A DNA stretch of 64,000 nt from an uncultured Methanoregulaceae archaeon (GCA_963737635.1 CAVTTL010000001.1:44999-108998); one strand, 5' to 3'; counted from the first letter of the stretch, positions 104 through 62,788 are shown. The notes: a model not told the origin generated them from the sequence alone. Numbers and translations: made by a program.

Positions 104-2226
104 TCATATTAACTGGATAATGCCCTGTTTTGGCTCCATTGCCTCGCCATGCCGCAGGAGCATCTCAATACCTTCCCGTACCTTATCGGTAGCAAATCCC
201 CGCGCAGAAACCGCTTCGATCACCTGCTCGACAGCAGCGCGCCTACCCTCACCGCCAATTTCCCGGATCGCATCCTTGATGACCCGGACTATGTCGCGTT
301 TTTCCTTCGATATACCGGTCGCCACCTTGTCAATATCAAAGGTGCCGGTCTTTGCGTCGTACGCGATCTGGCGCAGGCAGGCATCGACGATATGGATCAC
401 GCGCTCTGCGTCCCCGGCTTCGATCGTATTCGACAGCCGGATCCGGGCGCTCGCCTCTGCAAGCCTGACCAGTGCCTCGAGCTGCCGGGCAGTCACTGGC
501 ACTGCCTTATTCGGCTCAGCGATCCCCCTGAGTCTAAGATAGTAACCGACCAGGGCCTCTTTTGCCTCCGCTGAGAGGATAGGAAAACAGGTGCGTTTGG
601 AGTACGCAACGTACTTCCGGAAGAGTGCAGGTTCGATGTCCGGCATCACCGGCTTGAGCTGCTGGTCGATAAACTCCTGCGTGATTCCGGGAATAGGTGT
701 CTTCCGGTGCTGGGCAATAAGCTCCCCAATCCCATGCGCCTTGAGAATATGCTCGGCGATCGCGAGATCCCGTTTCTGCTCCGGCTGGTCGGTCATGATG
801 AAAATCAGGTCAAAGCGCGAGAGAAGCGAAGGAGGCATGTTGATCTGATCGGCAATGTCGCCGTACATGTCGAAGCGCCCGTACTTCGGGTTTGCCGCCC
901 CGAGAAGGGCGCACCGGGACTTGAGCGTTGCGGTAATCCCGGCCTTTGCGACGCTGATGGACTGTTGTTCCATCGCCTCGTGCAGGGCAGACCGGTCCTC
1001 CTTTTGCATCTTATCCATCTCATCGACCGCGGCAATGCCCATGTCCGCGAGTACAAGAGCCCCCGCTTCCAGCGTCCAGCGCCCTTCCCCAAATTCGTCC
1101 TTGACAGCAGTAGCGGTAAGGCCGGCTGACGTTGATGACTGACCACTCGTATAGATCGCGCGCGGGGAGCACTTTACGATATAGCGCAGCAGCTGGCTTT
1201 TTGCAATACCCGGGTCCCCGATCAAAAGGACATGGATGTCGCCCCGCAGGTGGCTCCCGTCCGGCATCTCTTTTGCGATGCCGCCGAAAAGCTGGAGAGT
1301 GATCGCTTCCTTGACATCCTCATTGCCGTAAATAGTCGGGGCAATCGAATGGGTGACCATCCGGTAGATCATCGGGTCGGCGGAGAGTTTTTTAATCTCG
1401 TCTTCTGCCTTCTCGTCGATCTCAACCTCTTCGAACTCTTTTTCGGCGATCTCGATCGAGTTGCATTCAAGGAAGATGTCAAAGACGGTACTCTTCTCTC
1501 CCTTCACGATCCGCTGCATGGAACGGAGGATACCGTTGATAATCACGCGGTCTCCCGGTGCGACCATACCGGAGAGATCATCGGTCACATCGATGTCAAG
1601 GGTCTGCGGCTGTTCGCCGCCCCGCAGCCCCTCAGGAGATTCCTGCACCCTGAGTTTCTGGGAATCGACAAATGTGGAGCGTTTGGGGATCATCTCCAGT
1701 TTCTTGAACGTACAGCCGTCGGTTGCGCACCCTTCCGGCTCGATAAACTTGCCGTACTTCTGCGTTTTCTTGGTAAAGTGGCCGCCGGGCACCTGAAAAC
1801 CGCTTCCACGATCCGGGGACGCACTTCGGTAGTCTTCCGGAGAATACCCTCGACCGAGAGAAACCGGTTTATATCGTCAGACCTGATCTCGCGGATAGCG
1901 GTCTTCTGAGGGAGGTTGGTAAAACGGATATTGACGCCTTTTGGCTCTTTGCCATCCTTGGTCCGGATCAGCTGGTTGTTTTTGATTGCGTCCCAGACAT
2001 CCTCGAGCACCTTTCCGGGGTTCTCTAAGAGTTCATCGGCGAGCGTGATGCCCACCTTACCGAACCGTTCGATCTGCCGGTAATCAATCAAAAGTGAGCG
2101 CTTGTGCGGGTAGAGACGTGAGATCTCGCCAAGCTCTTTCTTGTACCGGCTTTTAAGGAACTTTCCCCAGTCGTCGGCCCGGTCTCCCTGGTGCAGTTCG
2201 GGTGCTTTTTCCATGGTTCCTCTCAC
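104..2226 (-). CDS. mcm: MCM replicative helicase (apparent 1-nt frameshift at ~1786)
   Basis: ORFs 1690-2226 and 104-1792 join to give the Zn-finger FRCPGGH...C, Walker [10 protein letters not shown], Walker B AAVDEMDK and arginine finger SRFD. One extra base at CCGG 1785-1788 restores the frame. No intein. Confidence 0.96.
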
Positions 2227-3197
2227 CGGTTCTTCGTGCTCGCCAGAACGAACCGCGCAATCAGCGCCTCCATCTGGATGTCGCTGCTTGCCCCTTCCGA
2301 GAGCCGGAAATCGGTCTCCCCAAGGGCATCGATCAGTTCCACTTTAAGTGTCCGGTCCATCACGCGTTTTATGAGGGCACGGTAACACTGGTTGATCAGT
2401 TCGTTCGGCGAGATCCCCCGCTCACGCAGCAGGTGCGTAAGGAGAGATTCAGCCCCATCAAAATCACATTCCAGCGCTCGTTTCAGGAGATCCTCGATCT
2501 CGTCCGGCCGGGCATTGGAGGTGATTGCATAAACCCTAGAAGATTCGATCGTCGTACTAATGATTGCGGCACCCTGCAGGGCATTGATAGCTTTCCTCAT
2601 ATCGCCCTGCGCGATGTAGACTATCGCATCCATTGCATCGGGTGTCACCATCAGGTGTTCCTTTGCCGCGATCTTCGCGATCTCCTCTTTTATTGCGTCA
2701 GGTGCGAGCGGCCGGAACCGGTAGATCGCACACCGGCTCTGGATGGGGTCGATGATCTTCGACGAGTAATTACAAGAGAGGATAAACCGGCAGGTTCTTG
2801 CGTAGCTTTCCATAGTCCTGCGCAGCGCAGCCTGGGCGTCAGTCGTAAGCGCATCGGCCTCGTCCAGGAACAGGATCTTGAATGCCGCGTCCTCGGCAGG
2901 CCGGGTCCGGGCAAACTCCTTGATCTGGTTGCGCACCACATCGATACCCCGTTCATCGGACGCATTGAGTTCGCGGAAATTCATCTGCCACGAAGAACCG
3001 AAAAACTCCCGGGCAAGAGTACCCGCGGCAGTCGTTTTCCCTACCCCTGCGCTCCCGGTAAAAAGGAGATGGGGAAGGTTTCCCGATTTTACATAGGATG
3101 AGAGCCGTTCGACAATATCGTCCTGCCCGACAATATCGGCGAGTCTTGCCGGCCGGTATTTTTCTATCCAGATGGTGTGGGTCTCATCCATGCGCAT
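2223..3197 (-). CDS. rfcS: Replication factor C small subunit
   Basis: [30 protein letters not shown] and SRC motifs. Start at ATG 3197 or 3191 is more likely than the ORF-track start. 4-nt overlap with mcm. Confidence 0.96.
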
Positions 3198-3333
3198 CAA
3201 CCTGTGTTTAGATTGTCTTTTGGGTATGTTTGATTTTCCTGCCAAAAAATCCGGGCTGCCGGGTTGTATTCCCCAGCTCCAAAAAGATCCGGTAAGCAAT
3301 CACTAAAATGTCATAATCTTTATCATAAGCGTT

Positions 3334-4362
3334 TTGAAATTACTTTCCATGCTACCAAACCGAATTTCCCTTGTTTTTCTCCTGCTTGTATTTCTTATCA
3401 TGGGTCCTGTCCACGCAAGCCTGGCAAAGGTCGCTCCCAATGCACCGATATTTATTGGTGAACAAAATATCGACATCTCGGCGTGCCTGAACGGGCATAC
3501 GGTAATCGCATGGTGGCCGGCAGGCGCGGATCTGAGCACTAATCCATCCCAAACCATAACGATCTCCGGAAGTCCCACCTCGTTTTATGTCGATCCTGCC
3601 CTTTTTACCGGCTATACCGGCACCTGGTATTCCCACGATGCAAAACCGGACATTCCGGTCTTTGTCGTGTACCAGCCTCAGTTCAACCTCTCGATCTGGG
3701 ATGTAGACACGAATACGGATATCACCGGCCAATCGGTCCCGATGTCCACGAATATCACCTACCGGATCGATACAAACCTGTACATGGCGTTCAACTATAC
3801 GTTACGCCCGAATGCCAATCCTACAGACACCTTCTACACGGTTACTCTTACCTCACCATTAGGTGCAAGTATCACACAGATCCTGACCGGAAATATCGGG
3901 AACTCAAAAACCCAGTTCCTCCCGTTTGACGGCAATCCGACGATCACATCCTCACCGTACTTTTGGAAAAACGGGCAGGCATGGGACCATACTGCCATAG
4001 GCGCTGACGGTAACAGCATCTATCCGGCAGGCACCTATACGTTCGTCGCTTCGCAGAACCTTAACGGCATGAGTGGCAGTTATAGTGGTGCTGCCGCTGT
4101 CGGTAACGTGACCAGCGGGAACAGAACGATCACCTTTGTCGGCGCTGCCTACCCCACGCAAACAACGGTCGTGCCGAGTCTGACGGCGCCAACAATGACG
4201 ACAACAGAGGTCAAAACGGTGCAGACACCTGCTCAGGCAACCGTGCAACAAACGGCAACGGTCATACCTAAAAAGACGACCTATTCCCCGCTGCCTGAAG
4301 GAATTGCGGTCATGAGCGTCGGCATTGCGGCGTTGATTCTTGCAACGAGACGGAAGTATTAA
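3334..4362 (+). CDS. DUF3821-like secreted cell-surface glycoprotein with C-terminal anchor
   Basis: Signal peptide, IFIGEQNIDIS N-terminal motif, Thr-rich linker, SPL + hydrophobic helix + RRK tail, several N-x-S/T sequons. Confidence 0.7.
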   Translation: MKLLSMLPNRISLVFLLLVFLIMGPVHASLAKVAPNAPIFIGEQNIDISACLNGHTVIAWWPAGADLSTNPSQTITISGSPTSFYVDPALFTGYTGTWYSHDAKPDIPVFVVYQPQFNLSIWDVDTNTDITGQSVPMSTNITYRIDTNLYMAFNYTLRPNANPTDTFYTVTLTSPLGASITQILTGNIGNSKTQFLPFDGNPTITSSPYFWKNGQAWDHTAIGADGNSIYPAGTYTFVASQNLNGMSGSYSGAAAVGNVTSGNRTITFVGAAYPTQTTVVPSLTAPTMTTTEVKTVQTPAQATVQQTATVIPKKTTYSPLPEGIAVMSVGIAALILATRRKY

Positions 4363-4388
4363 TCTTCAAAATCTCCTCTTTTTAACAG

Positions 4389-4921
4389 ATGAGTAAGAAC
4401 AAAACCAAAAGCCGGAAACCTGACCGGAGAAAAAGAGGATCTCACGAAAAATCGTTATTGCGATCTGTGCCGTGCTTCTTGTCTGCATTGTTGCAACTGC
4501 GGGTTTCCTTCTTATAAGACAGGGCCCTCTTTCCCCGGCACCAGCGGGTAATGCCACGAACCCTGTTAACACCGCGGGAGAATATTATTGCATGAGCGTT
4601 GACCTCGCATACGCCGGGAATTATAGTGAAGCACTTCGGGACGCCGATTTTGCCCTCGCACAAAATGTGAGTTCGCTGACTCCCATCATCCAGTCGAATC
4701 GTGCAGGAATCCTTGTGGAACTTGGCCGCTACAATGATGCGATAGACGCAGCGGATGTAGCTATTAACGCCAACGGGAACCTGACAACCCTGAAAACTAT
4801 TGCATGGTACTGGAAGGCACGCGCACTTCAGGAACTAAACATGACGTCAGAGGCAACAGCCGCTTTTGCCAATGCATCGGCCCTCGATCCGATCCACAAG
4901 ATTATTCCCGACCATTTATAG
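4389..4921 (+). CDS. Membrane-anchored TPR protein (apparent frameshift at ~4425)
   Basis: ATG 4389 gives MSKNKTKSRKPD; adding one C at CCGG 4424-4427 joins it to PEKKRISRKIVIAICAVLL, then a TM helix and TPR-like repeats (YSEALRDADFAL, YNDAIDAADVAI, WYWKARALQEL). Confidence 0.7.
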
Positions 4922-5159
4922 TGAATGGGGCCAACGACATGGCACATACATCCGGAGATATGTCTCCGGGTGATCCATCGCCTGTCCTTTTTTCCCTGAT
5001 TCTGCCGGCTTTCATAAAAACATCAGATAATGAACGAGTGCTGTACCATTGTTGAGAATCCCTCTATCGCGTGCGGCACCGGCCCTGTTTGTCCATCTTC
5101 GGCCGTTTATCAACGCCTATACCTTGAATACCTCTCTTTTGTAAGTACTACTCACAACC

Positions 5160-5933
5160 ATGGAAGGTGCAGCCCGCGTTTTTGCCGGAGATTTTGCCGG
5201 CTCGACCCTTACCGAGCCCGATGAAAACTCAGGAAGTACGGCATGGGTAGTGACCCCGGGCGGGACATGGTGCCGATCGGTCTACCTGTGCGGGGTACTT
5301 ACCGAAGTTAACGAGATCGCAGATGTCCTATACTGTCGGCTCGCCGATCCAACCGGTGCATTCGACCTTGTCGCAGGGACCAAGCGGGGACCGGTCGCGG
5401 AACAGATCCGTGGCCTCCCGGTCCCGTCCTTTGTAGCCGTTACGGGTACAGCCCGGCTGGACCGGAAGAACGGGGGCTGGGCGATGTGGGTCAGGCCTGA
5501 ATATATCCAGGAAATCGACAAGGCAAGCCGCGACCGGTGGATCATTTCGACTGCGGATATGACCATTGCCCGGCTTGAACTGCTCCTTGCAGCCCTTGAA
5601 GGACAATCAGACGATGAACGGGCACACCGCGTTGTCCGACACTACGGTCTTACCCGGGCAGGGATCCGATCTATGGTCGCGATGATCGAGGGTGCGCTTG
5701 CCGGCGTCCGTACTATTCCGGAAGCACCGCCGGTTGCTGAAACCGATATAAGCGGAACGATCATGGAGATTATCAGCACAAAAAGCGGCCCCCGGGGTGT
5801 GGCCGTACAGGACGTTATCGATGAAGCGGCTTGCCGAGGGTATACCCAGGCAGCAGTTCTCACCGCTATCGAAACCCTCATCACCAACGACGATTGTTAC
5901 CAACCCCAGAAAGGATATGTAAAACCGTTATGA
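5160..5933 (+). CDS. RPA-associated OB-fold protein (COG3390-like) with C-terminal winged helix
   Basis: ARVFAGDF, VVTPGG, RLADPTGAF and VRPE motifs typical of the euryarchaeal RPA-associated family. Confidence 0.75.
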   Translation: MEGAARVFAGDFAGSTLTEPDENSGSTAWVVTPGGTWCRSVYLCGVLTEVNEIADVLYCRLADPTGAFDLVAGTKRGPVAEQIRGLPVPSFVAVTGTARLDRKNGGWAMWVRPEYIQEIDKASRDRWIISTADMTIARLELLLAALEGQSDDERAHRVVRHYGLTRAGIRSMVAMIEGALAGVRTIPEAPPVAETDISGTIMEIISTKSGPRGVAVQDVIDEAACRGYTQAAVLTAIETLITNDDCYQPQKGYVKPL

Positions 5934-6715
5934 GAATGGAGTTTATCAGGGACGGCCCGGCGCTTATAATAGAGAACACCGAGCGGCTGCTCATCGTTGC
6001 CGATCTCCATTTCGGGATTGAAGCCGATCTGGCTGCACACGGTATGCATTTCCGGAGCCACAGCACCCAACGGCTCGCCCGGCTTATGCAGACCCTGGAG
6101 GCAACAAAGCCGGACCGGCTTGTCCTCCTTGGTGACGTCAAACACAGCATCCCTTCGCTCACCAGGCAGGAATGGGCGGAGATCCCAGGAATCCTCGATA
6201 CCATCCGGCACCGGATCCCGATCCTTGTCTTCCCGGGAAACCACGATATCGGTATCGAGCGGTTTCTTCTCAAAGGCGAGCTCCAGCCAAAAGAGGGGGC
6301 GGTCATTGACGGCGTTGCGTATTTCCACGGCCATACCTACCCTGCCCCGGAGCTTGGCGGCCATCTCCTCGTCACCGGTCATCACCACCCGCAGGTCAGC
6401 CTGCACGATCAGGTAGGGTGCTCTCTCCAGGCTCCGGCATATTTGCGGGCGACCATTGACGCAGCGGCGCTCGGCCTCAAAACACCGGAAGAAAACAGTA
6501 CTCCCCGGGCCCTGTTCGTGCCCGCGTTCAACGAGATTGCCGGCTACGATATCGTCCGGATCGCCCGCGATCCTTTCTCGCCCATCTCCCGGTGCATGAA
6601 GATGGAGGATGCCGAGGTCATCCTTGCCGATGGTTCATACATAGGGCCGCTTTCATTGCTGCTCGAAGACGATAATACGGACGAGAGACCGGGGAAGGGT
6701 CGCCATGGTGCTTGA
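5930..6715 (+). CDS. Calcineurin-like metallophosphoesterase (COG1407-like)
   Basis: VADLHFG, LLGDVKH, PGNHD, FHGH and GHHHP metal-binding motifs. Start at ATG 5930 overlaps the previous stop (ATGA). Confidence 0.9.
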   Translation: MRMEFIRDGPALIIENTERLLIVADLHFGIEADLAAHGMHFRSHSTQRLARLMQTLEATKPDRLVLLGDVKHSIPSLTRQEWAEIPGILDTIRHRIPILVFPGNHDIGIERFLLKGELQPKEGAVIDGVAYFHGHTYPAPELGGHLLVTGHHHPQVSLHDQVGCSLQAPAYLRATIDAAALGLKTPEENSTPRALFVPAFNEIAGYDIVRIARDPFSPISRCMKMEDAEVILADGSYIGPLSLLLEDDNTDERPGKGRHGA

Positions 6716-9398: not shown

Positions 9399-9527
9399 GG
9401 TTTCCCGGACGGTGCTACCCCAATACGTTTTACCCGATAGTACTTCGTGAAAGGTCCACCGGGATAATCAGTGCAAAGGAAATTCGTAAAAAAAGAGATT
9501 CGTGGTGCAGGTACGCCGGCACCCGTA

Positions 9528-10082
9528 TTACATAATGCTTTCGAGTTTCTGTTCGAGGAAATCGAGGCCTTTCTTGATATCGTCGAGGTTCTTGCCACCG
9601 GTCAGGATAATCTTTCCCGAAGAGAAGAGGAGTGCGACAATTTTCGGGTCCTTGATCCGGTATACGAGGCCCGGGAACTGCTCTGGTTCATACTCGATGT
9701 TTTCGAGATTGAGAGTCACAACGACCTTGTTGAGGTTGATATATTTGCCAATGTCGTAGGAGCAGACGATATTGGTGATCGAAACCCGGGGCTTATCCAG
9801 CGTTTTCACCCCCGCCTGCTTCAGGGACTTGATGATGATGGCAAGCCCGTCTTTTAACGCCTTGTCGTCCCGGATACCGGTGAGCACAACTTTACCCGAG
9901 GAGAAGATCAGGGATGCGATCTTGGGATTCTCGATACGGTATACGGCACCGGGGAACCTCTTGGTATTGAGCTCGCAGCTCTTGATCTTGCTTGAAACCT
10001 CGTTGAGATCAATGGACTCGGCGATGACTCCTGAAGCCACGACATTCTCAATTTTTAATGAATCATACCGTTTGTCAGCCAT
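9528..10082 (-). CDS. tbp: TATA-box-binding protein
   Basis: Two direct repeats (IENVVAS...FPGAVYRI...IFSSGKVVLTG and ITNIVCS...YEPEQFPGLVYRI...LFSSGKIILTG). Confidence 0.97.
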   Translation of the reverse strand: MADKRYDSLKIENVVASGVIAESIDLNEVSSKIKSCELNTKRFPGAVYRIENPKIASLIFSSGKVVLTGIRDDKALKDGLAIIIKSLKQAGVKTLDKPRVSITNIVCSYDIGKYINLNKVVVTLNLENIEYEPEQFPGLVYRIKDPKIVALLFSSGKIILTGGKNLDDIKKGLDFLEQKLESIM

Positions 10083-10245
10083 CCTGTATACTATGAAGTG
10101 TGTCGAATCATAATACTAATGGGGAACCTTTATGTCCCCTACCTGTTCTCTGACGGGAGGCCGCAGCGGGAGCGAACGCCTGCACAAAAACTGCCCGGGA
10201 CCGCTCTTCTCAAAAGCTAAAGGACAGCATTGAAATGGAAATACC

Positions 10246-11946: not shown

Positions 11947-12030
11947 CCCGAACTATCATCACCTTTATTTTTAGAAATTCCGCCGCTTTGTCCATATCCG
12001 GGCACCAAAAAAACATGAGCCCGGATATTT

Positions 12031-12071
12031 CTGGTGCACAAAAAAAGCAAAATCCTGATAAAGTGCACCAG
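12031..12071. promoter_or_regulatory. Perfect 9-bp inverted repeat CTGGTGCAC-N23-GTGCACCAG over the promoter of the RHH-ACS gene
   Basis: Arms at 12031-12039 and 12063-12071, ending 13 nt before ATG 12085. A related GGCACCA lies at 12001-12007. Confidence 0.6.
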
Positions 12072-12084
12072 CGAACCAACAAGT

Positions 12085-13915: not shown

Positions 13916-13942
13916 ATGCTGACAGGTCCCTTTTCCCTTATC

Positions 13943-13950
13943 TTTATTAA
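13943..13950 (+). promoter_or_regulatory. TATA box of tRNA-Leu
   Basis: TTTATTAA ending about 25 nt upstream of the tRNA 5' end. Confidence 0.6.
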
Positions 13951-13974
13951 ACCGGGAACATAATCTATACAGGC

Positions 13975-14331: not shown

Positions 14332-14332
14332 C

Positions 14333-15870: not shown

Positions 15871-17275
15871 CTCTCCTCTCAACGGTTTCAGACTATTGGC
15901 TCGGCCTGTGCCGGAGACCACCAGCAGTACATGCCCTCCAGACAGGTATTGGTATCCCGGAACCAGTCCATGAGGGCAGCCCGGATGGTGGGGGCGGCGG
16001 ACCGGGAACGATCCGACGGGGAACCGGGGCCGCCCTTTCAGGAATGAAAACCCTTATCCATAACCCGCAACTCCTCTGGTTCTCGCTCCTGGCCGGACTT
16101 GTGCTGGCCATACATTCCATCGCCCAGTGCTGGCTCATCGTATTCCCCTCATCATCAGAGTGGCGGTTTTTCTTTGACCCCGACTCTGTCCGTTTACTCC
16201 CATCACTTGCCCTCACTTTTGTGGCCGGGCTCGTGACGGTGTTCTGCCTGGGGTTCTTACTGGCGGGCCTTGCCTTAAGCATCTCATCAAAGAAAGACCG
16301 TCCTGTCTCATTCTTCCAGGGACTCAACACGGCAAAAAAATACCTGACACCTCTTACCGGGGGGTCCGTGGTTGTGGCACTCGCAGGGATCCAGCTCTTC
16401 GTTCATCCCTTCATCGTCCAAGGGGCGCTCTTCGTTCGCAACCCCCGGTGGCTGCTCTTCATCGATCCCTACTATGCCGGTTTACTCACATCGCTTGTCC
16501 TGACATTTGTGATCGAGCTCCTGACGGTGTTCTGCCAGGTATTCTTACTGGCGGCCCTTATCCTGAGCATTTCTTCAAAGGAAAGCGGTCCGGTCCCAGT
16601 CTTCCAAGGGCTTAACAAGGCAAAAAAATATTTGAAGCCTCTTACCGGGTGGTCCGTGGTTGTGGCACTCGCCGGCAGTCTGCTCTTCATCGCTGGCGAA
16701 TATTCTTATCTGATGAGCTCGGTCATCTGGCAATCCCTGATCAATGTGCTCAACCAGTTCCCCTTCACCTTTATCCTGAACTACCTTCTCCCGCGGCCCC
16801 CTTCATCGCCCTCCTGCCACCAAACCTGTGGTGGGGATTTAGCAGTGCACTCGTGGATACCCTGATCCTTTCAGCAATCAACGTACTCCTGTTCGCCTTG
16901 ACCTTGTTTGTAGTACCCCTGCTCGTGCTTGGGAGGAAGAGCCTGAAGGAGGCGGTTTTGGGATCATTTACCCTGATGAAGAAGATCTGGGGTGAAGTGG
17001 CAGCCTGCATTCTCGGCCTTGGAATGGTAGTATTTGTTGCCTCGCTCATGTTCCTGCTCTTCCCGTTTTCCGGGGTTGATCATATGTGGCGGGATGCCGG
17101 CCAACTGTACACTTCGTACACACCCCCCGGTGTTGAGTGGATCGCTCTCGGCTTCCTGTATGTACTTGCCCTGTCCAGCCTTGTGCTAGTCGTGGCAACA
17201 GTCGGGGGAATTGCAACACTGGATCTCTACACATTTGCAAAGACGGGGCAAATGTCCGGACCCGCTGAAACGTAA
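15867..17275 (+). CDS. Polytopic membrane protein paralog, copy 2, with internal duplication (apparent frameshift at ~16793)
   Basis: N-terminus nearly identical to copy 1. The block LTFV..LxTVFC..FLLAxLxLSISSK...FQGLNxAKKYLxPLTGxSVVVALAG occurs twice. One added base restores LLPAAPFIALLPP. Confidence 0.75.
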
Positions 17276-24707: not shown

Positions 24708-26128
24708 ATGACTCGGTATTCACCCTTTTTATCGTATTTTCTGTTCCTGTTCCTTGCATCAGTTGTACTATGGTGCCATCCGGTTTCTGCGGTCGAATTA
24801 CCGGTCGCAGATTTTTCAATCACACCGGTATCAGGCACCGTACCACTGGATGTAACGATGACCGATATATCAAAAGGACCCCATGCAGCGTGGTTCTGGA
24901 CGTTTGGCGACGGCGCATTTTCCTCCAGCCAAGAACCGGGACATACCTATACAGAACCTGGTTCCTATACCGTTAGTCTGTTCATTACCGATAATCAGGG
25001 ACATACCAGTGTCAAAAAAAGATATGTTACGGTCGGATCCTGGTGGTGGACACATCTGGGGAGCGTAGTATCGAACCTCTTTCTCAAACCCGCCCCACCT
25101 CTGGCACCTGTTGAACCAGCTGATAACGGGCTTTTTCACGGCCATTTTGAAGATCTGCCATCTATAAATGAGATGCCGGTCTCCCCGCTCATGCAACGTT
25201 TCCTCACTGACGGATATACGGTCACCTTTAAACAATCAGGACTGCCAACGGGTTTGAACTGGTCGGTTGTCCTTGTTAACAACAACGGAACCCGGCTGGA
25301 GAGAACGTCATCTGCACCTGAAATCCGTTTTTCAGATATTCATGGATCGTATACCTATGCAATACCGCTGGTGAAATTTGGGAAAAGACAGGTAAATATT
25401 TCTGCAATACCGTCTTCGGGCCCGGTTGACAGAGATAGTATTGATATTCAATTCTCTCATTTCGAGCCTTCCTGGGCGGGATATATAATGGCAGCAAATG
25501 TGACCGATCCCGGCCGGTTGTGACATCGGTAGCAGGATCATGGATTGTTCCGGAACTTTCGGGTACTACTGCAGATATGACGTCGGCATTTCAATGGATA
25601 GGAATCGGGGGATTTTTTCCGGGAGATGCCAGTAACCTGATCCAGACAGGAACTGCATCCAGTCTCGGCGGAATGTATCCTATGCAATATAATTATGGCT
25701 GGATCGAACTTCTCCCGGGTCGTTCCGAACCGATCCCACCGGATTTCGTTATTTTTCCGGGTGATACCATGCAGGCAAAGATACAGACAGAAAAGCCGGG
25801 GAGATGGAATATAACCCTGAGAGACCTCACGCAAAACTGGCAATACGAGAGAACCTTTCTTTACCATTCCTCTATGGATAGCGCAGAATGGGTACTGGAA
25901 AACCCCTCTTATGCAGGAGAAACGTATGATCTTGCCACGTTCGGGGTTGCGAATTTCGGAACACCATCGTCAGATGATGATAATGCGACCATTGATGCAG
26001 TGACCGGCCCACTGGGTACATTCCCTGGTTTCTCAATAACGATGGTATACAACAATACTTCACGGGCAATGCCATCACCATTATCGTCTGAAGGCAATTT
26101 CACTATCAAGGGATATAGTGCGAATTAA
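24708..26128 (+). CDS. Secreted PKD-domain protein with C-terminal family G1 (eqolisin-type) glutamic peptidase domain (apparent frameshift at ~25511)
   Basis: Signal peptide and PKD (WFWTFGDG), then SWAGY, WIVP, QWIGIGG, LIQTGT, WIELLP and SAEWVLENP. One added base at CCGG fuses the two ORFs (TDPRPVVTSVAGSW). Confidence 0.75.
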
Positions 26129-29634: not shown

Positions 29635-31239
29635 TTACTGACCCTTTTTATATCCCCACCCGCGCAGCTGATCGATAAGTTCCACGGGTTTTTTGGTCAC
29701 CGTATTAATACGCCCTGCATAAACCCGGCCGCTCGGGCCGTCAAGGGTGATATAATCACTTTCATACAGGTCCCCGGCCGGAAAAGGTGCACATCCGGCG
29801 GGTAAGATCGATTTTGAGGTCTTCACAGCTGACGATGCAGACTTTGCCCATCTGCCGCGCCACAACAGCTGCGTGGGACGTCCGTGCCCCCCGGATGGTG
29901 AGGATACCGGCAGAGGCAGCGATGCCACTAATGTCATCCGGGGTCGCTGTTTCCCGGACCAGGATAACCGGTGAGGTTTTGGCAAGCTCGACCGCACGTT
30001 CGCTCGTAAAAGCGATCTTTCCCGAGGCGACGCCGAGAGATGCAGAAATCCCGGTCGCGAGAGGACTTTCTGTGGTCTCGAGGGTCTGGATGGTAATAGC
30101 ATCGATATCGATATTTTTGATCCGGTCGAGTGCCTCGTCTTTTCCAATGATATTCTCCCGGACAAGGTCGACGGCAATATGCAGGGCCGCAAGAGGGGCC
30201 CGTTTCCCGGACCTGCTCTGGAGGATGAAGAGTTTTCCTTCCTGAACCGTGAACTCGATGTCCTGCATGTCCCGGTACAGGTATTCAAGCCTTGTTGCCG
30301 CATAGGACAATTCTCGGGCTGCAAGGGGGATCCGTCCCGAAAACACATGGTGTGATACCACGCCCATCAGGCCAGAGACTATATCTTCGCCTTGTGCCCC
30401 AAACCTGAAATCGACGAGAAGTTCGTTTGAACCGGTCCATGGGTTCCGGGAGAAAGCAACGCCGGCCCCGGAAAGGGTACCAAGGTTCCCAAAGACCATC
30501 GCCTGCACCGTCACGCCGGTACCGCGTACACCGGGGCCGGGATTCATATTCCGGAAGGTTACGGCACGGGGGCTGTTCCATGACTGCAGGATTGCGGTCG
30601 TGGCCAGTTCGAGCTGCACAAAGACATCTTCAGGCAACCGTCTTCCGTTTGTCCGCGGGTACAGCTTTCGTACTCCTCTGCAATTGACCGAAGGGCTGAG
30701 AAATCGAGTGCGGCTTCTTCGGTGAGCCGTTCTTTTTCCATACTCTCCTGCACAATCTTCCGGTACTGGCCGGGGTCATGGGAAAAAACCACGGTGCCAA
30801 AATTTTCAAGGAACCGCCGGTACGAGTCCCAGGCAAATTTCGGGTTCCCCGTCTGTGCTATGAGCCCCCGCAGCGTATCCCGGTTCAGCCCGATATCGAG
30901 GATTGTCTCCATCGCACCGGGCATACTCGCCGGTGCCCCGGATCGTACCGAAACAAGGAGAGGCCGCCGGCCAGCACCGTAGAGCTGCCCGGTAGACCGC
31001 TCGATAAAAGCAAGCCCCTGGCGGAGAATCTCAGGCACATCGTCGGGGAGTACCTGGCCGTTCCGGTAATATTCCTCGCAGATATCGACGGAAAGGGCAA
31101 ACCCCGGGGGGACCGGGATGCCTTGTGCAGACATCTGGGTAAGAACAGAGGCTTTGTTCCCAAAATCCCCGGAGGTCACCTCATTCCTTACTTCAGGCCC
31201 AAAGAATACGATCCGGGGGGTTTTATCGGTCATAGGCAA
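29635..31239 (-). CDS. Short PPDK-like protein: ATP-grasp plus phosphohistidine swivel domain, no pyruvate/PEP domain (apparent frameshifts at ~30664 and ~29774)
   Basis: GNKASVL..IPVPPGF, PLLVSVRSGAPASMPGAMETIL, GEDIVSG, DIEFTVQEGKLFILQSR, GARTSHAAVVARQMG, ITLDGPSGRVYAG. About 530 codons, then a stop and the convergent sixA gene. Confidence 0.85.
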
Positions 31240-39613: not shown

Positions 39614-40352
39614 ATGAGCGGCACGGTGCGGTATCCCGAAATCGACCTCTTCCGGGGTATCGCCATCGTGATGATGATCCTCTTTCACACCATCTTCGAT
39701 CTCACGTTTTTTCGGATCGTTCCGTTCGATGTAACAGATGGGTTCTGGCGGTATTTTGCCTACGCCACTGCCTCGCTTTTCCTGCTCATTGTAGGAATAT
39801 CACTTTCGATTAGCCATGCCCGCGCTGTATCCCACCTCAATGGTTGGGCACGGGTAAAAAAATTCATCCTGAGAGAGCGGCATTTTCTGCTGCGGGCTTC
39901 TGGTAACTCTTGCAACCTGGTGGTACCTTCAGGAGGGATATGTCATATTCGGTATCCTGCACCTGATCGGGGTTGCGGTTATGCTCTCGCCGCTTTTCTT
40001 CCGGTTCCGCACCTGGAATGCGGTGATCGGGATCGTCTTTATTGCCCTCGGGTGGATCCTTGCCACTATCCCGGGCCCTATGGGGCTTTTGGTCTTCGGC
40101 ATTCACCCGCTCATGTTCCAGAGTGTCGATTATACCCCGGTGTTTCCGTGGATGGGACTCGTTTTGATCGGCCTTGCCGTTGGGGAGTTCGCCTACCCCG
40201 GGGGAGAGCGGAGGTGGACACTTCCCAAGATCCCTGAACGGGAGATCGCCCCACTTTCTTTTCTTGGCAGGCATTCGCTCATTATTTACCTCGTGCACCA
40301 GCCGGTAATCCTCCTGATAATACACTTTGTAACAGGCGCACCGATTCTCTGA
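39614..40352 (+). CDS. DUF1624 / HGSNAT-like membrane acyltransferase-family protein (apparent frameshift at ~39877)
   Basis: EIDLFRGIAIVMMILFH, FGILHLIG, DYTPVFPW and FLGRHSLIIYLVHQP motifs across two frames. Confidence 0.85.
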
Positions 40353-41748: not shown

Positions 41749-42110
41749 ATGATTCGCGAAAAAATGACTTCCGGTAAGGAACCGCTGCCTCGGTACACCA
41801 TGGCAGATGGATCCGCACCGGAATACGAAGCGATCCTTCAGCAGATCCAGAACTATCACATATCAATGATCGGCAGGTCATTCTATTACATCCATGCAGG
41901 ACAGACGGATGAACTGAGCCTGTGCAGGATCATCCCCAGTGGCGGCAAGATTTATTTCCATGAGATTGTCGATCACCGGAAATTCGGGATATCGGACGAT
42001 GATATGGAAGAAGCGTCGAAATTTACCACGGGTGTCTTTACTGTCCGGGGCATTTTCCTATCACGCCTCCCATCGAAAAGAAGCTGCGGGCGATTCTTAA
42101 CGCGAAATAA
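41749..42110 (+). CDS. Hypothetical protein (probable frameshift at ~42046)
   Basis: Adding one C at GTCCGGGG gives a natural-looking end FTVPGHFPITPPIEKKLRAILNAK*. Start uncertain. Confidence 0.55.
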
Positions 42111-46854: not shown

Positions 46855-48363
46855 GCATCGGCAGCATCCCCCTCAGGTTCAAGGTCGAATTGGACACAGA
46901 GCGTTGCATGAACTGCGGCCGCTGCATCGAGAACTGCTCGTATGGCGTGTTCCGGAGAGAGAATGACAAGATTGTCATTAATTCCCGCAACTGCGTGGCC
47001 TGTCACCGCTGTCTTGCGTTCTGCCCACGCGATGCACTCAGCATCTACGAGAAACCCACGGATTACCGGAGCCACCCTGTCTGGACCCGGGAGATTCGCG
47101 AAGCGGTTTTCAATCAGGCAAAAACAGGCAAGATTATTCTTGCCGGGATGGGAAACGTCCTTCCCTACCCGATGATCTTTGACCGGCTCGTGCTTGATGC
47201 ATGTCAGGTTACCAACCCCTCGATCGACCCGCTTCGCGAACCCATGGAGCTGCGGACGTATATCGGGAAAAAACCTACGGCGCTCTCAGTGAAAGAGTAC
47301 CCGAATGGCGATACCGATCTCCTCACCAAACTCGCACCAAACCTCAAACTCGAGACGCCAATTATGATTGGCCATATGAGTTATGGTGCGATCAGCCTGA
47401 ATGCCCAGACCGCACTTGCAAAAGCAGTAACGAAGGTAGGGACGTTCATGGGTACTGGTGAAGGAGGACTCCACGAGTCGCTCTACCCGTACCAGAGTAA
47501 TATAATAGTTCAGGTTGCTTCGGGCAGGTTCGGCGTCGACATCAACTATCTCGAACGCGGAGCTGCCATCGAGATCAAAATCGGCCAGGGCGCAAAGCCG
47601 GGGATTGGCGGCCACCTGCCGGGTGAAAAAGTATGCGCCGATGTTTCCTGTACCAGGATGATTCCTGAGGGAAGCGATGCAATCAGCCCGGCCCCGCACC
47701 ATGACATTTACAGTATCGAGGATCTCAAACAACTCGTGCACAGTCTCAAGGAAGCAACCGAGTGGAAGAAACCGGTATTTGTGAAAATCGCGGCAGTCCA
47801 TAATTCTGCGGCGATCGCGGCCGGAATCGCCCGGTCAGGAGCCGATGCGGTAGTAGTCGACGGTTTCCGTGGCGGTACTGGTGCGGCGCCCCGGGTCTTC
47901 CGCGACCATGTGGGCATCCCGATTGAGGCGGCAGTTGCAAGTGTCGATGCGAAGCTGCGCTCCCAGGGTATCAGGAACGAGGTCTCGATCATTGCAAGTG
48001 GCGGGATCCGGGAGAGTGCAGACATCGCAAAGATCATCTGCCTCGGCGCCGACGCCGTTTACATCGGTACCTCGGCTCTCGTCGCGATGGGCTGCCGGGT
48101 CTGTGGTACCTGTAACCGGGGCACCTGCGCATGGGGGATTGCAACCCAGAAACCGGAACTCGACTAAGAGACTCGATCCGGAGACAAACGCGGTGCAGGT
48201 TGCAAACCTGATCCATGCGTGGACTGACGAGATCGCAGAACTCATGGGCGCCGCCGGTATCAACAGTATCGAGAGCCTGCGGGGGAACCGCGACCGGCTC
48301 CGGGGCTACATGCTGGATGAGGGGCTCCTCAAAGTGCTAGACGTAAAATCTGTGGGGGCATAA
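46851..48363 (+). CDS. gltB2: Glutamate synthase FMN-binding subunit with N-terminal 2x[4Fe-4S] domain (apparent +1 frameshift at ~48163)
   Basis: CMNCGRCIENC and CVACHRCLAFC, MSYGAIS, TGEGG, QVASGRFG, EIKIGQGAKPGIGGHLPG, HHDIYSIEDL. The second frame continues KRLDPETNA...RGNRDRL. Confidence 0.92.
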
Positions 48364-49112: not shown

Positions 49113-50137
49113 TGGCGATGGCAGATAAGAGTTATCTTGATTTGAAAAGCGAGGTCTGGGACACAAAAAAATGTTCGGGCTGCGGTGCCTGTGTAGCCGT
49201 CTGCCCGGCCGACGCCCTCTCCTTTGCAGAAGGAGAGATGGTGGCAACCCCGAGAAGCAATGGGTACTGTAAGCAGGCGACCGACAACGTTCCCTGTGGG
49301 GCGTGTTACGCCGTCTGCCCCAGGACCAGCGACCAGCAGAATGATACGCTTGGCGCATACCTCGAATTATTCTCAGCAAAATCAACCTTTGAGATCCCGC
49401 ACCGGCAGAGTGGCGGGGCAGTAACGGCAATTCTTGCAAATGCCCTTGATGCAGGCCTAATCGATGCCGTGGTAACCGTAACCGAAGACCCCTGGACGCT
49501 CCAGCCTTCTTCTGCGATCATTACGAAGTCCGAGATCCTTATCCGGGAAGCCGGCAGCCGGTACAGCTGGTGGGTGCCACTCCTTGCAGCACTCAAAGAC
49601 GCTGCGATAACCAGGAAGTATACGAAAATTGCAGTAATCGGTGTTCCCTGCGCAGTCCAGGCCGCTGCCCGGATCCGGGCGAGTGAGAACGATCTCCTGC
49701 GTCCCTATGCTAAGGCGATCCGGCTCGTCATCGGCCTTTTCTGCACTGAGACCTTCGATTATGCGAGCCTCGTGCATGGCAAGCTCGAAAAGAAATACAA
49801 GATTGCACCGCACGAGATACGAAAACTGGACGTTAAAGGCAGACTCGATATCTTAAAACAGGACGGGGCACATCTCTCTGTCCCACTTGCCGATCTTGAG
49901 GACACGATCCGACCTGGGTGCCGGATCTGCACGGACTTTTCCTCACTCGGTGCCGACATTTCAGCCGGGGCGGTCGGAAGCCCGGCGGGATATACAACAC
50001 TGGTCATCCGCACTGCAACAGGCAAGGGGTTTATTGAGAGTGCGGTGCGGAATAAAAGATTAGTCACTGAGCTCGGTGTTGACACTGCAGCGATAGAGAA
50101 ACTGGCTACATCCAAGATCAAGAAAAATTCCCGGTAA
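49112..50137 (+). CDS. Coenzyme F420 hydrogenase/dehydrogenase beta-subunit (FrhB-like) protein with ferredoxin domain
   Basis: CSGCGACVAVCP, QSGGAVTAIL, AGSRY, IGVPC, IGLFCTETF, CRICTDF, ADISAGAVGS; start overlaps the gltB3 stop. Confidence 0.88.
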   Translation: MAMADKSYLDLKSEVWDTKKCSGCGACVAVCPADALSFAEGEMVATPRSNGYCKQATDNVPCGACYAVCPRTSDQQNDTLGAYLELFSAKSTFEIPHRQSGGAVTAILANALDAGLIDAVVTVTEDPWTLQPSSAIITKSEILIREAGSRYSWWVPLLAALKDAAITRKYTKIAVIGVPCAVQAAARIRASENDLLRPYAKAIRLVIGLFCTETFDYASLVHGKLEKKYKIAPHEIRKLDVKGRLDILKQDGAHLSVPLADLEDTIRPGCRICTDFSSLGADISAGAVGSPAGYTTLVIRTATGKGFIESAVRNKRLVTELGVDTAAIEKLATSKIKKNSR

Positions 50138-53752: not shown

Positions 53753-55935
53753 TGGCGCGACGGGAGACCCTGCAGCAGACTCTTGACGGCAGCTTTTCCC
53801 CGGCCCTCCCTTTTGTCCGGACAACCGATGGCCACATCATTGAGTGGGACCGGAACCGGATTGCCGAACAGATTATAAAAGAGACGAAGCTCGTCGAGAC
53901 GTTCTATGGGTACAAGGGCGCGGACCATGCGACTGCCCAGGAAATCGCCCGGCTGGTCGAGCAGCGCATCTTTGCTCTGGGCTTAAAATCGCTCTCGGGC
54001 CCGCTCATCCGGGAGATTATGAACATCACTCTCCTCGAGAAAGGCATGGTACAGGTACAGGAACGTCTGCACCCGGGTCGGTACACCGGTCTACGACGCG
54101 CACCAGATCGATGTAGGTAAGGGATTCGAATCTCACGAGAACGCAAACCTCCAGGAAAATGCCGAAACCTCGCATAAAAAGAAGGCTGACAAGATCTCAA
54201 AGGAGCAATACCTCCTCCAGCTTCCTCCGGATCTAGCCGACCATCATCTCTGTGGCGAGATGCATATCCACGATCTTGAATATTTCGGGACACGCCCGTT
54301 CTGTCAGGACTGGGATCTTCGGTACTTTTTCTACTACGGTCTCATGCCGGACGGTAACGGGACGAAGGCCTCTGTCGCTGGCCCGGCAAAAAGGGCGGAG
54401 GTTGCAATCCTCCATGCCGTAAAAGCGCTTGGCAGCGCCCAGACAAACTTTGCCGGTGGGCAGGGTTATTACAATTTCCTGACTTTCCTCGCACCGTATA
54501 TGGAGGGCATGGGGTATGAAGAGATCCGGCAGAACATGCAGATGTTTGTCTATGAGATGACACAGATGATGGTCGCACGGGGGGGCCAGCTCGTATTTTC
54601 TTCGGTACAGCTCTCCCCGGGTGTCCCGGCGCTCTGGCAGGATAAACCCTGCATCTATAAAGGGAAAGTCTGGGACGGGAAGCAAGCGCCACGCCGCACC
54701 TACGGCGAATTCGAGCGGGAAGTCCGCATGCTCTTTAAAGCACTCATGGAGGTGATGATTGAAGGAGATTACTGGGGCAAGCCGTTCAATTTCCCAAAAC
54801 CCGAGATCAGCATCGAGCCGGACTTCATGAACGAACGCGAAGCGTTCAACCGTGCCTACCCGGACCTCCCGACCTACCGGGATCTGTATCTTATGACCTT
54901 CGAACTTGCGTCCAAGTTCGGAACGCCATACTACGACAACCAGCTCCCGGCATACCGGGGAGCGGGAAAAGGCATCTCATGTTACCAGTGCTGTGCCTAC
55001 CAGTTTTCCGCTGTAGCCGACAAAGACTCAGATTTTGACAAAAAACTGTTCTTCGAGGATGGCCGGCACTTTTCGATGGGTTCATGGCAGGTGGTCTCGG
55101 TGAACTGCCCACGTGCCGCATACAAGGCAGAAGGAAACGATGATCGGCTCTTCGCCGAACTTCGGTCCCTTATGGATGTGGCTATCGAGCTCTTCCGGAT
55201 CAAGCGCCGGTGGATGGACATAATCCGGGCAAACGGCCGGATGCCGTTTGCAATGCAGCGCCCAAAAGACCCCAATACCGGGGATTGTGGGGCTATCGCA
55301 GTCGATCTCGAAGGTCTTGTGTACACGATCGGTGTTGTCGGCGTAAACGAGATGGTCCAGCACCACATCGGTAAACAGACCCATGAGTCAAAGGCTGCAT
55401 TCAAGCTGGCCGTCCGCGCAATGACCGAGATGGAGCTCTACGCCCGCACCCTCTCTGAGAAAAACCATATGACGATTGCCCTTGCCCGGACCCGGCAGAG
55501 ACGACCGGGCAGCGGTTTGCTGTTGCAGATCTTATCGACCGGCGCTACCACGATGCTGCTGCAAAAGTGATTAAGGGCGACCTCGAGTACGCACTCGAAA
55601 ACCTCGGAAAGACCCGGGATCTCCCCATCTACTACACGAACGGGACACATGTTGCGCCGGGCGCCGATGTCCCGCTCACGAAACGTATGGAAATCGAGAA
55701 TGTCTTTTTCCCAATCGTTGACGGGGGGAATATCTTCCATATATGGCTCGGCGAGGCCCGACCGGATCCCCGCGGTCTCATGGACATGGCGATGAACCTC
55801 TGCCGGAACACGCAGATCGGCTACTTCGCATTCACCCGGGATCTCACCGTTTCGCTCAGGCAGTTCCGCGAAGACCGGCATGGCAGGAAAACAATCGAAG
55901 CGGGGACACCTTCAGACATCCCGGTTAAAGCATAA
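53752..55935 (+). CDS. nrdD: Class III ribonucleotide reductase NrdD homolog lacking the C-terminal Zn ribbon and glycyl-radical loop (apparent frameshifts at ~54055 and ~55492)
   Basis: ATP-cone-like N-terminus, HIHDLEY, GGQG, FNFPKP, YQCC, VSVNCPR, TIGVVGVNEMV, TPAET, YYTNGTH, GGNIFH, GYFAFTRDLTV. It then ends SLRQFREDRHG...VKA* with no CxxC or RxxGY. Confidence 0.88.
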
Positions 55936-60271: not shown

Positions 60272-61204
60272 GCCGATCTGGCTCCTTGTGCTGCTGGTGA
60301 TCCCGGTCCTCGCCGGGCTCTATTACTACATTATCCGGAAAAAGAAGAAGGAAGCGATCGCATTTTCCCGGGTTGCGTTTGCGAAGTCAGCCCTTGGGGA
60401 TGCACAGAGATCAAAACGTTCGCACATCCTCTTTGTAGTGGCTCTTGCAACCATCGCTCTTCTGGTAATCGGCCTTGCCGATCCCCACATCCCGCTTGCA
60501 CAGACAAAAGAAGGAACGAACGTGATCCTCGTGATCGATGATTCCGGGAGCATGCAGGCCACCGATTATCAGCCGTCCCGTATCGAAGCAGCAAAGAGCC
60601 AGCCGAACAGCTTGTTGGAAATCTCGGCCCGGAGGACGCGGCCGGTGTCATTCTCTTTGACACCGGCGCGACCACGGTCGCGTACCTGAGCCAAGACAAA
60701 ACGCGGGTTGAAGAAAAGATTGCCGGTATTGCTCCCAGTCCTGGCTCGACCGCAATCGGTGACGGCCTTGCTCTTGCCGTCGACATGGCCCAGTCGGCAC
60801 CGGATAAGAAAAGCGTCATTATCCTGCTTTCGGACGGGGTTAACAATGCGGGCCTGATCACACCTGATGAGGCAACTGCGCTTGCAAAATCCGCCGGCAT
60901 CCAGGTTGACACGATCGGCATTGGGACTACCACACAGACCGTCCTCGGCTACGACTGGGTGGGCAACCCGGAATATGCTGGTCTCAACGAATCTGCCCTT
61001 GAGTCCATCGCAGATCAGACCGGGGGCAAATACTACAAATCGGTCGATGCGCAGACCTTAAAAGAAATCTATACCAACCTGAAGCCGGGTACTGAACCTG
61101 TAGCTGAAGAGACCAGTATCAAGGACTGGTTCATTTTTGCTGCGCTCGTCCTGCTCTGCGCAGAATTCTGGCTCCGTTACGGCGGAGGGAGGATTATCCA
61201 GTGA
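60255..61204 (+). CDS. BatA-like vWA domain membrane protein (apparent frameshift at ~60599)
   Basis: N-terminal TM, MIDAS DDSGSM, STAIGDGL, LLSDG, GIQVDTIGIG, IADQTGGKYY and a C-terminal TM. One added base joins the frames. Confidence 0.88.
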
Positions 61205-62788
61205 AGGCTCGCTATGCGGGAGTACTCATTCTCCTCTTTGCCGCACTGCTCCTTCCACCTGCCACTGCCGCCGGCGTGAAGATCACGTCAGACCAGACCG
61301 AGTATTATTTTGCACTGGGACAGATCGCCCAGCTCTCACTTCCCGTATCGAATACATACTCCTCACCTATAGAGGGAACACTCCGCTTTACTACGATCCA
61401 GCAGCTCCAGAATGCCGGGAATACCCTGACGATCACGAAAAACCAGATCTATCCAACTGCGTTCCCGGCCGGAAACTCCTTCCTCAACGTCAGCGCCGGC
61501 ACATCCAACGTTTCCCAAACGATCAAGATCCAGATAGCTTACCAGTACACGGATTCCGCACCTGTCCTCATCACTTTGCCGGAAATCCGTATCCATTTCG
61601 TACAGGATCTCTCTCAGGTACACAAACCAATCGAGCATTCCCGTTTCCAGTACCAGCGGTGCCGGCCTGCCCGGTGGACTGGGCAACAGTTCTGTCCAGC
61701 TTGCGCAACAGGCTGTCTCTGCCCAGCAACAGGCTGGCGTGGATACAGGATCAACCTCTTTGCAATCATCCGCGTCTTCCTCTCAGAACGGTCAGATGTT
61801 CCAGAATACTTCAGTACTTAAAGCGCAGATCCAGCAGGCTGCTGCACAAATGGATGCGGCACGGAATACTTTTAACCAAGCACTTGCTGCAGACCCCTTA
61901 CTCCGGCAGGTCAACAAGACCCTCACGGTGGACGGATTTTTTCGACAATCCGTGACCACGAACCCCTCAAGCGGCGACAACGGTACCTTTGCGATGATCT
62001 ACCAGGATCGCACCGGGGAACAGGTAAACCTGCAGGGCGCTCTTATAAACGGGACTGTTTACTCGGTACTTGAACAATCGGCGGCAGCACTCAACGTGAC
62101 CACATCGCTTGGCACCAACGCGACCTACCAATCATTTACGAACGATCTCATTCATTCAGAATTCCAGAGAAACCGGACGCTCATGAATGTAACCCTTACC
62201 GGCACGACAGTCAACGTCACCTATCTCTCTAGGCAGGGAGCGAGAGCATACATCCATGCCAAGATCGATAATGGAAATGTGACGTTGGTGTCGCTTGATA
62301 GAGAAAGTACAGATATAACCTCCCTCCTTCTCGGGATTATCTGTGCAATCTTCATTGCAGTCGGTGCAGGAATGATGTACCGACACGTCAAAGTACAAAA
62401 AAAGGTGGCTTCTGCCGCATTCCCCCGGCAATCGGCTGTACCACCAGACTACCAAAGCGAAGTTCTGAGCCTGCTTGCCGAAGCGGAAGCAGCATTTGCC
62501 AACCGGAACTACAAAAACGCATACGGTTTTGTCGGCCAGGCCACAAGGGTCTATTTCTCCTGCGAGCAGGGAGAGCGCCGCGAACTCACCAATGGCGAAC
62601 TTGTGCACCTTCTTGCAGCATCACGGCATGCAAAAGACCTCGCTGATATCATTGCTCTCCTGGAACGATGCAGCGACGTGGAGTTTGCAAAAGGCATGCC
62701 TGACACCGATGAATTCGCTGCTATGATCCGGCAGGTACGGGCATTTGTCTCACCGGATCTTCTTCAACCAGGGATAAAATCCCGGTGA
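61201..62788 (+). CDS. Secreted/membrane protein of the MoxR operon with C-terminal DUF4129-like helical domain (apparent +1 frameshift at ~61617)
   Basis: Signal peptide; removing G from CAGGTAC gives QDLSQYTNQSSIPVSSTS, which reads into the 61739-62788 frame; late TM then ELTNGEL..CSDVEFAK. Confidence 0.7.

Follow-up and report, generated by a model that had tools for sequence, protein, structure and literature searches.

Gene-breaking consensus errors in a 64-kb assembly fragment of an uncultured Methanoregulaceae archaeon are bound to AGCT, GTAC and CCGG-type motifs and are probably caused by methylation

Introduction

Consensus error linked to DNA methylation is an already known and published artefact of nanopore sequencing. 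In R10.4.1 assemblies the error-prone sites coincide with methylation motifs and can be used for motif discovery (Hammerhead, PMC11610603), the purine/purine ambiguity found at 'ambiguous positions' vanishes on DNA amplified by the polymerase chain reaction (PMC11610573), and G-to-A and A-to-G errors are concentrated at PacBio-verified motifs (bioRxiv 10.64898/2026.01.14.699587). Here we describe the errors in a 64,000-nucleotide stretch of DNA from an uncultured Methanoregulaceae archaeon (GCA_963737635.1, CAVTTL010000001.1:44999-108998), called the window below, in which the minichromosome maintenance helicase gene mcm and many other conserved genes appear broken. The original prediction, made from the sequence alone, held that the genes are intact and that the breaks mark methylated CCGG, GTAC and AGCT sites.

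The errors of the window resemble the published R10.4.1 cases in being bound to short motifs, surviving polishing, being dominated by purine/purine confusion, being correctable with short reads and revealing motifs. The published cases are mostly substitutions at N6-methyladenine or 5-methylcytosine motifs of cultured bacteria, studied with raw signal or amplified controls, whereas in the window half of the errors are one-base, gene-breaking indels, the motifs are cytosine palindromes, the organism is an uncultured archaeon and the errors are seen at the level of the consensus. The older-chemistry nanopore errors related to Dam and Dcm, for which in-silico and demodification remedies exist, as cited within PMC11610573, are alike in that a modified base in a fixed motif leads to reproducible miscalls; as cited there, they differ in motif, organism and chemistry generation. 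False pseudogenes from long-read homopolymer errors are also similar, as one-base indels split open reading frames (ORFs) and the fragments inflate the gene count, but most of the window indels are in or next to 4-mers that are not repetitive.

The same three recognition sequences are known from N4-methylcytosine (m4C) methylomes of the Methanomicrobiales, in the same order or genus as the window. In Methanospirillum hungatei (JF-1), single-molecule real-time (SMRT) data assign m4C to GTAC (M.MhuII) and AGCT (M.MhuIV) (PMC11033074, REBASE entries), while in Methanoregula boonei 6A8 the enzyme M.Mbo6A8ORF469P is predicted to make m4C at CCGG (PMC11033074). The same review lists an m4C candidate for CCCGGG in M. 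hungatei and, in M. jannaschii, the enzymes MjaV and MjaVI (PMC11033074). SMRT kinetics or sequence-based prediction, combined with identified genes, underlie these assignments; the footprint in the window is drawn from errors and, for CCGG, is restricted to GCCGG.

Results

Logan contigs of the soil-metagenome runs X1, X2, X3, X4, X6 and X7, from four studies (P1-P4), were aligned over positions 1-64000. Several soil-metagenome runs of different studies hold 50-94% of the 31-mers of the window, and an Illumina origin is marked by adapter at the contig ends (Nextera in X6, TruSeq in X7). The comparison of the first 20 kb was repeated cleanly. The alignment, a check that had been proposed with the original prediction, gave 38 consensus differences in 34 events (20 one-base indels and 18 substitutions) at which all covering runs contradict the window, a density of about one event per 1.7 kb; the contig coverage of each single run has gaps, so that a few further errors may have escaped. 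Elsewhere the covering short-read contigs are 99.95-100% identical to the window, and the remaining differences are a few strain variants, each private to a single run.

Ten bases are missing from the window (G after 1783, 4423, 39874 and 42044; C after 16793, 25508, 39877 and 55490; T after 30665 and 60599) and ten are surplus (13648, 18735, 29187, 29772, 38852, 39434, 48162, 54054, 61617 and 62808). The substitutions are at 938, 4422, 10190, 12513, 15215, 22298, 26944, 27229, 39607, 41797, 42118, 42345, 48158, 48953, 49842, 49843, 57822 and 58295. Public assemblies agree with the short reads. The NCBI metagenome contig L081 differs from the window at only five positions in 10,840 bases (54054, 55490, 57822, 58295 and 60599), all of them among the 38, and the gene calls of L080 and L081 give the anaerobic ribonucleotide reductase NrdD (727 amino acids), a glutamate-synthase-domain protein (503 amino acids) and a 528-amino-acid protein at exactly their corrected lengths.

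On correction the split ORFs fuse into full-length proteins with complete Pfam domains. The corrected MCM has 707 amino acids, with MCM_OB, MCM and MCM_lid domains, in place of two pieces of 562 and 178 amino acids, and three pieces become one ORF both for NrdD (727 amino acids) and for a PPDK_N / PEP-utilizers protein (534 amino acids). Orthologues in Illumina metagenome-assembled genomes (MAGs) align colinearly with the corrected proteins and show no frameshifts. Because the sequence of the independent short-read and NCBI metagenome contigs restores the reading frame at 17 of the 18 sites named in the original prediction, within 0-4 bases of the places given there, the gene breaks are consensus errors of the assembly and the genome itself has intact genes. 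Two indels (39434 and 62808) had been missed in the reading of frames as they are intergenic, and all 18 substitutions were likewise hidden from it.

Were the indels and stops instead real, they would mark a strain decaying into pseudogenes or programmed frameshifting. One stop is genuine and common to the Illumina contigs of three runs (see below), but 20 of the 20 indels are contradicted by every covering short-read contig, from several studies; the essential single-copy genes mcm and nrdD would be dead; and mutations are not expected to keep to three palindromes, intergenic sites included. In addition, the erroneous 31-mers around 39874-39877 (39846-39906) are present in no indexed run. Real lesions are therefore given almost no credence as an account of the breaks.

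The exception among the 18 sites is the in-frame TAG at 14983-14985 (+ strand), in a gene at about 14770-15870 for a DUF6159-like membrane protein that stands in tandem with an intact paralogue (15867-17275), in which the aligned codon is Gln. It had been read as an AGCT-linked CAG-to-TAG error. The T is present in the Illumina contigs from X1, X2 and X4, and C (CAG) occurs only in a divergent contig of X7. Since three Illumina runs retain it, the stop is real and an assembly error at this position is ruled out; it is either a natural nonsense variant or the mark of a shortened gene that restarts at GTG 15016.

Enrichment was measured by an unbiased scan of all 4-mers in the corrected sequence, with each motif extended by one base on either side, over the 34 events. 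AGCT ranks first of all 4-mers (159 sites), with 14 events in 1.7% of positions (p=2e-16). CCGG ranks second (856 sites), with 14 events in 9.3% of positions (p=8e-7), and GTAC (231 sites) holds six events in 2.5% of positions (p=2e-4). Together the three motifs account for 33/34 events in 13% of positions (p=3e-28), and for 34/34 with a two-base margin. The share of sites in error is 9% for AGCT, 2.6% for GTAC and about 4% for GCCGG half-sites. No events fall at other palindromes of the window, such as GATC (609 sites), TCGA (374) and TGCA (312).

The CCGG events depend on the flanking base. Errors occur at none of the 528 sites lacking a 5' G or a 3' C, at eight of the 285 with one such flank and at six of the 43 GCCGGC sites, so that all 14 events lie in the 328 flanked sites among 856 (chance 0.383^14, about 1.5e-6). 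This answers the original caveat that CCGG is very common in the window: CCGG stands as an error motif, yet the error-prone context is narrower than had been proposed and is GCCGG/CCGGC. RCCGGY and GCCGGC were considered as the exact motif and rejected, given that GCCGGA, GCCGGG and GCCGGT err too.

The forms of error recur. At AGCT the second base G is read as A five times (including the mirrored C3>T) and a base is inserted between G and C three times (AG[A]CT or AG[T]CT, the surplus base in brackets); in the other events bases are inserted or deleted within the motif or right beside it. The forms AG[T/A]CT at 38852 and 18735 and the surplus A before AGCT at 29187 had been foreseen and are borne out by the reads. 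Two sites listed as possible AGCT cases, at 60599 and 30664, proved to be a missing T of AGCT and a missing T after AGCT, respectively, and a break at 48163 said to fit only in part is a true AGCT (GGAGCTCACT), masked by a second error at 48158. At GTAC there are three substitutions of a flanking base and three cases of a surplus 5' G, which the reads show at 54054 and 61617 and mirrored, as a surplus C, at 13648, in agreement with the form described at the outset. At CCGG the preceding G is read as A or C (five times), GCCGGC has lost a G or C, or the C-run before CCGG has the wrong length. Confusions of G and A make up 12 of the 18 substitutions.

Long-read errors of an ordinary kind, whether random or due to homopolymers or thin coverage, could lie near frequent motifs by chance, and CCGG is indeed very frequent, its 856 sites placing 9% of positions within one base. 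AGCT and GTAC are infrequent, however, and yet hold 20 of the 34 events; the combined p is 3e-28, identical forms of error recur and every one of the 14 CCGG events falls in the 38% of sites that have a G/C flank. By run length, 15 or 16 of the 20 indels are in runs of one or two bases, four in runs of four and one in a run of three. With only 4-5 indels in runs of three or more the errors are not of the classic homopolymer type, and chance errors are a very improbable source of the pattern.

The source of the window bears on the cause. A 247-amino-acid protein (50505-51245) is encoded on eight contigs of public assemblies, one of which, from a soil metagenome, is longer than 1 Mb, and long reads are therefore implied. 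It is strongly suggested that the window comes from a long-read, probably nanopore, assembly. The nearest relatives are Methanoregula and Methanoregulaceae MAGs, as judged by an Lhr-type helicase (6705-9398) scanned against one genome per species; its highest identities are 92% (amino acids) to MFD02138.bin.c.1 and 91% to an Illumina MAG, and none of the species representatives scanned has an identical protein. The window is most probably a fragment of a long-read, Oxford Nanopore MAG of an uncultured Methanoregula.

Sister genomes carry similar errors. In a tblastn screen the homologous 20-kb loci of 79 relatives were compared with the corrected proteins. Most in-frame 'stop' signals arose from ORF starts set too far upstream, and such signals were ignored, so that frame changes alone were counted. 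About 39 were found in 13 loci of Microflora Danica long-read MAGs, which are Nanopore-only assemblies made with Flye and one round of Medaka (PMC12313526), against two in about 60 other, mostly short-read, loci. Four Nextera runs were aligned to one of the 13, the sister locus L049 (positions 1-20000, MFD02138.bin.c.1, OY969564.1). Ten indels in 20 kb are supported by three or four runs, three at AGCT and seven being length errors in the C-run of CCCGG(G); beyond these there is one CCCGGG case in a single run and one plain T-run error. No substitution is common to the runs, and the spectrum differs from that of the window. All three tblastn frame changes in L049 coincide with read-supported indels, which validates the screen. 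In the other 12 long-read loci AGCT lies at seven frameshift junctions where 1.8 are expected (p about 0.002) and CCGG is weakly enriched, while the enrichment of GTAC was not reproduced at these junctions.

In L049 5-6 of the 26 CCCGGG sites (about 20%) are in error, in the window none of 63, and substitutions of the GCCGG type are found in the window only. Genome-specific modification explains this difference in CCGG sub-context more easily than plain sequence context, barring different assembly software. It is tempting to read from finished assemblies a methylome difference at the level of species, with AGCT, GTAC and GCCGG-type sites in the window and AGCT and CCCGGG in its congener MFD02138.bin.c.1, but such a reading is tentative and on balance doubtful. 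The GCCGG-type site may be a CCGG specificity whose miscalls depend on context, or possibly a specificity narrower than CCGG, without a named enzyme in the REBASE entries tabulated in PMC11033074.

We consider that the motif-bound consensus errors of this long-read assembly were probably caused by methylation at AGCT, GTAC and CCGG-type sites, with a probability of roughly 80%. This is the most probable cause because the three motifs are m4C methyltransferase specificities of the Methanomicrobiales and because the mechanism is published. The organism would methylate cytosines in the three motifs, most likely as m4C like its relatives, and the modified base would shift the pore current. A basecaller untrained on the modification may then miscall a neighbour, most commonly by reading the G immediately 5' of the modified C as A or C, or may add or drop a base inside or beside the motif. 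As a palindrome would be modified on both strands, the error would be systematic; at a few per cent of sites it would win the consensus and survive polishing, and the error positions would be an indirect print of the methylome.

The strongest competing explanation is a context-specific bias of the basecaller or polisher in which methylation has no part, so that certain k-mers (G before CCGG, AGCT, CAGTACA and C-runs before GG) are hard in any genome. In its favour, a C-run of the wrong length accounts for three CCGG-type indels of the window and for each of the eight CCGG-type events of L049; nanopore reads tend to confuse G and A in general, amplified DNA included (bioRxiv 10.64898/2026.01.14.699587); and the window and L049 may have come from different pipelines, a possible reason for their unlike spectra. 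On the other side, the errors keep to precisely three 4-base palindromes, each a documented target of m4C in the same archaeal order, and equally common palindromes (GATC, TCGA and TGCA) are free of error. The contrast at CCCGGG, about 20% of sites in L049 against 0/63 in the window, and the location of the indels mostly in runs of 1-2 also argue against such a bias, as do comparisons of native with amplified DNA, which place consensus errors at methylated motifs (bioRxiv 10.64898/2026.01.14.699587, PMC11610603, PMC11610573). A bias of context without modification is thus unlikely.

Several observations weigh against methylation as the cause. Among the runs listed for the window none is labelled as nanopore. 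None of the ORFs of the 64 kb was recognised as a DNA methyltransferase gene by motif scan, Pfam or gene calls; a regular expression for methyltransferase motifs gave three DPPF/SPPW hits, one in a 348-amino-acid ORF with no Pfam match and the other two in small or overlapping ORFs outside the Pfam search. That the window has many substitutions and errs at GCCGG, where L049 has indels only and errs at CCCGGG, may also reflect different versions of the basecaller or polisher. Among the CCGG-type indels several give the wrong length to a C-run of 3-4 bases, where long reads are prone to error with or without modification. Finally, AGCT, GTAC and CCGG are not avoided in the window (observed/expected 0.99, 1.08 and 1.38), and, as none of the three is avoided, there is no pointer to an active cognate restriction endonuclease.

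The original estimate of about 18 broken genes is roughly the number of breaks, and the number of genes is lower: the indels strike about 15 genes, of which 11 are split into long pieces, three are altered at a terminus only and one, a small ORF, is ambiguous. The split genes begin with mcm, in which a G is missing at 1783..1784 (true GGCCGGCCGGG). In a gene for an AMP-binding enzyme (548+94, corrected to 626 amino acids) a surplus C at 13648 lies immediately 3' of GTAC, and a gene for a DUF6159 protein (332+208 to 469) lacks a C at 16793..16794 (true CGCCGGCC). The gene of a PKD / peptidase A4 protein (271+202 to 473) has lost one C of CCCC in CCCCGGCCGG at 25508..25509. Two breaks interrupt the PPDK_N / PEP-utilizers gene, a surplus C at 29772 (true TCCCGGCCGG) and a missing T immediately 3' of AGCT at 30665..30666 (true AGCTTTT). 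A 5'-nucleotidase gene (439+168 to 588) is split by the surplus T of AG[T]CT at 38852, and one for an HGSNAT_cat acyltransferase (207+123 to 246) by the loss of a G and a C at 39874..39878 (true GGAGCCGGCA). The glutamate-synthase-domain protein, which is GltB-like (438+164 to 503), has the paired errors at 48158..48162, A>G and a surplus G, within the AGCT given above.

Towards the end of the window, nrdD is broken twice, by a surplus G immediately 5' of GTAC at 54054 (CAG[G]TAC) and by the loss of one C of CCCC in ACCCCGGCA at 55490..55491. A T of AGCT is missing at 60599..60600 (true AGAGCTCAG) in the gene of a BatA/VWA protein (152+139 to 324), and the gene of the 528-amino-acid protein, which is membrane-anchored, is split (206+349) by another CAG[G]TAC, with its surplus G immediately 5' of GTAC at 61617.

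The changes at gene ends are a truncated N-terminus in a TPR protein (149, corrected to 177 amino acids; G>C and a missing G at 4422..4423, true CTCAGCCGGAG), an altered C-terminus in a PepSY-like protein (318 to 311; surplus A within AGCT at 18735, which is AG[A]CT here and AG[T]CT on the coding strand) and a cut N-terminus in a histidine-phosphatase-family protein (157 to 164; surplus A immediately 5' of AGCT at 29187). A G missing at 42044..42045 (true TGTGCCGGGG) changes the end of the small unannotated ORF. The two intergenic indels, which the original prediction did not list, are surplus C bases within AGCT, A[C]GCT at 39434 and AGC[C]T at 62808, the latter 19 bases past the stop of the 528-amino-acid gene.

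By effect, the substitutions comprise eight silent changes, about six that alter an amino acid and four that lie between genes. Silent changes include 938 in mcm (window C, reads G; true TGCCGGCC), 12513 in an acyl-CoA synthetase gene (A, reads G; GTGCCGGAG), 22298 (A, reads G; AGCCGGCA), 27229 (A, reads G; TTAGCTC, AGCT position 2), 42345 in a P-II gene (C, reads G; TTGCCGGTC), 48953 (A, reads G; GCAGCTGCC, AGCT position 2) and 57822 (T, reads C; GAGCTAT, AGCT position 3). The false amino acid changes include L67P at 15215 (C, reads T; GAGCTTG, AGCT position 4), R120W at 26944 (A, reads G; TGCCGGAT), A17T at 41797 in a small ORF (A, reads G, base 3' of GTAC; GGTACGCC), K245R in an FrhB/FdhB-like protein from the double substitution at 49842..49843 (window AGACT, true AAGCT) and G15S at 58295 in a MoxR-like ATPase (A, reads G, base 5' of GTAC; TAGGTACC). 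Between genes are 10190 (A, reads G; AAAAGCTG, AGCT position 2), 39607 (G, reads A, base 5' of GTAC; CCAGTACT) and 42118 (C, reads G; ATGCCGGCC).

The window has a G+C content of about 52% and carries the archaeal replication genes mcm, RFC small subunit and TBP, together with one tRNA-Leu. In base composition CCGG is strongly over-represented (856 sites), GATC is frequent (609 sites) and CTAG alone is depleted (18 sites, observed/expected 0.43). In every run the short-read contigs are interrupted at the 3' end of the tRNA-Leu(CAG) gene (13975-14059) and then diverge into several sequences. In the stretch from 16 to 28 kb that follows, the G+C content is 0.47 as against 0.54, and the genes encode PKD/PepSY surface proteins, a PAS sensor and PPK2 rather than a restriction-modification system. 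The region beside the tRNA gene (14060-28000) looks like a strain-variable island. Within it a 41-base repeat (19167-19207 and 20131-20171, 39 of 41 bases matching) lies in two adjacent minus-strand genes for PepSY-type secreted proteins and causes the joints at which the layout of the contigs goes back on itself.

Other gene pairs also stand in tandem. At 42267-45336 two ammonium-transporter genes are accompanied by a single P-II (glnK) gene, and the 340 bases between the transporters hold an ORF with no family match and a sequence unlike that of a protein; this stretch is probably non-coding. At 10246-13915 there are two paralogous AMP-binding (acyl-CoA synthetase-type) genes, and the second has, in its longest ORF, a long N-terminal extension that probably reflects a start called too far upstream. 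The GATase_2 (glutamate synthase subunit) gene at 46044-46623 has about 100 differences, mostly at third codon positions, from L080, which is elsewhere near-identical to the window, and this suggests a recombined or strain-variant segment.

Discussion

The broken reading frames of mcm, nrdD and the rest are artefacts, since the errors are motif-bound consensus miscalls and independent Illumina data show intact genes. In this window alone the errors split eleven genes that are in truth whole, mcm and nrdD among them, and at least six false amino acid changes are invisible to inspection of the reading frames. The related long-read MAGs examined here often share this class of error. Pseudogene counts, completeness estimates, protein catalogues and comparisons at the level of single-nucleotide polymorphisms that draw on such MAGs are biased in a motif-dependent way, for which the remedy is polishing with short reads or renewed basecalling with methylation-aware models.

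If the footprint does record methylome differences between species, catalogues of nanopore-only MAGs could be mined for the methylation motifs of uncultured archaea from the assemblies themselves, with no need of raw signal. For the organism, the footprint of errors suggests that uncultured Methanoregula may carry the m4C-type methylation at AGCT, GTAC and CCGG that is known from cultured Methanomicrobiales.

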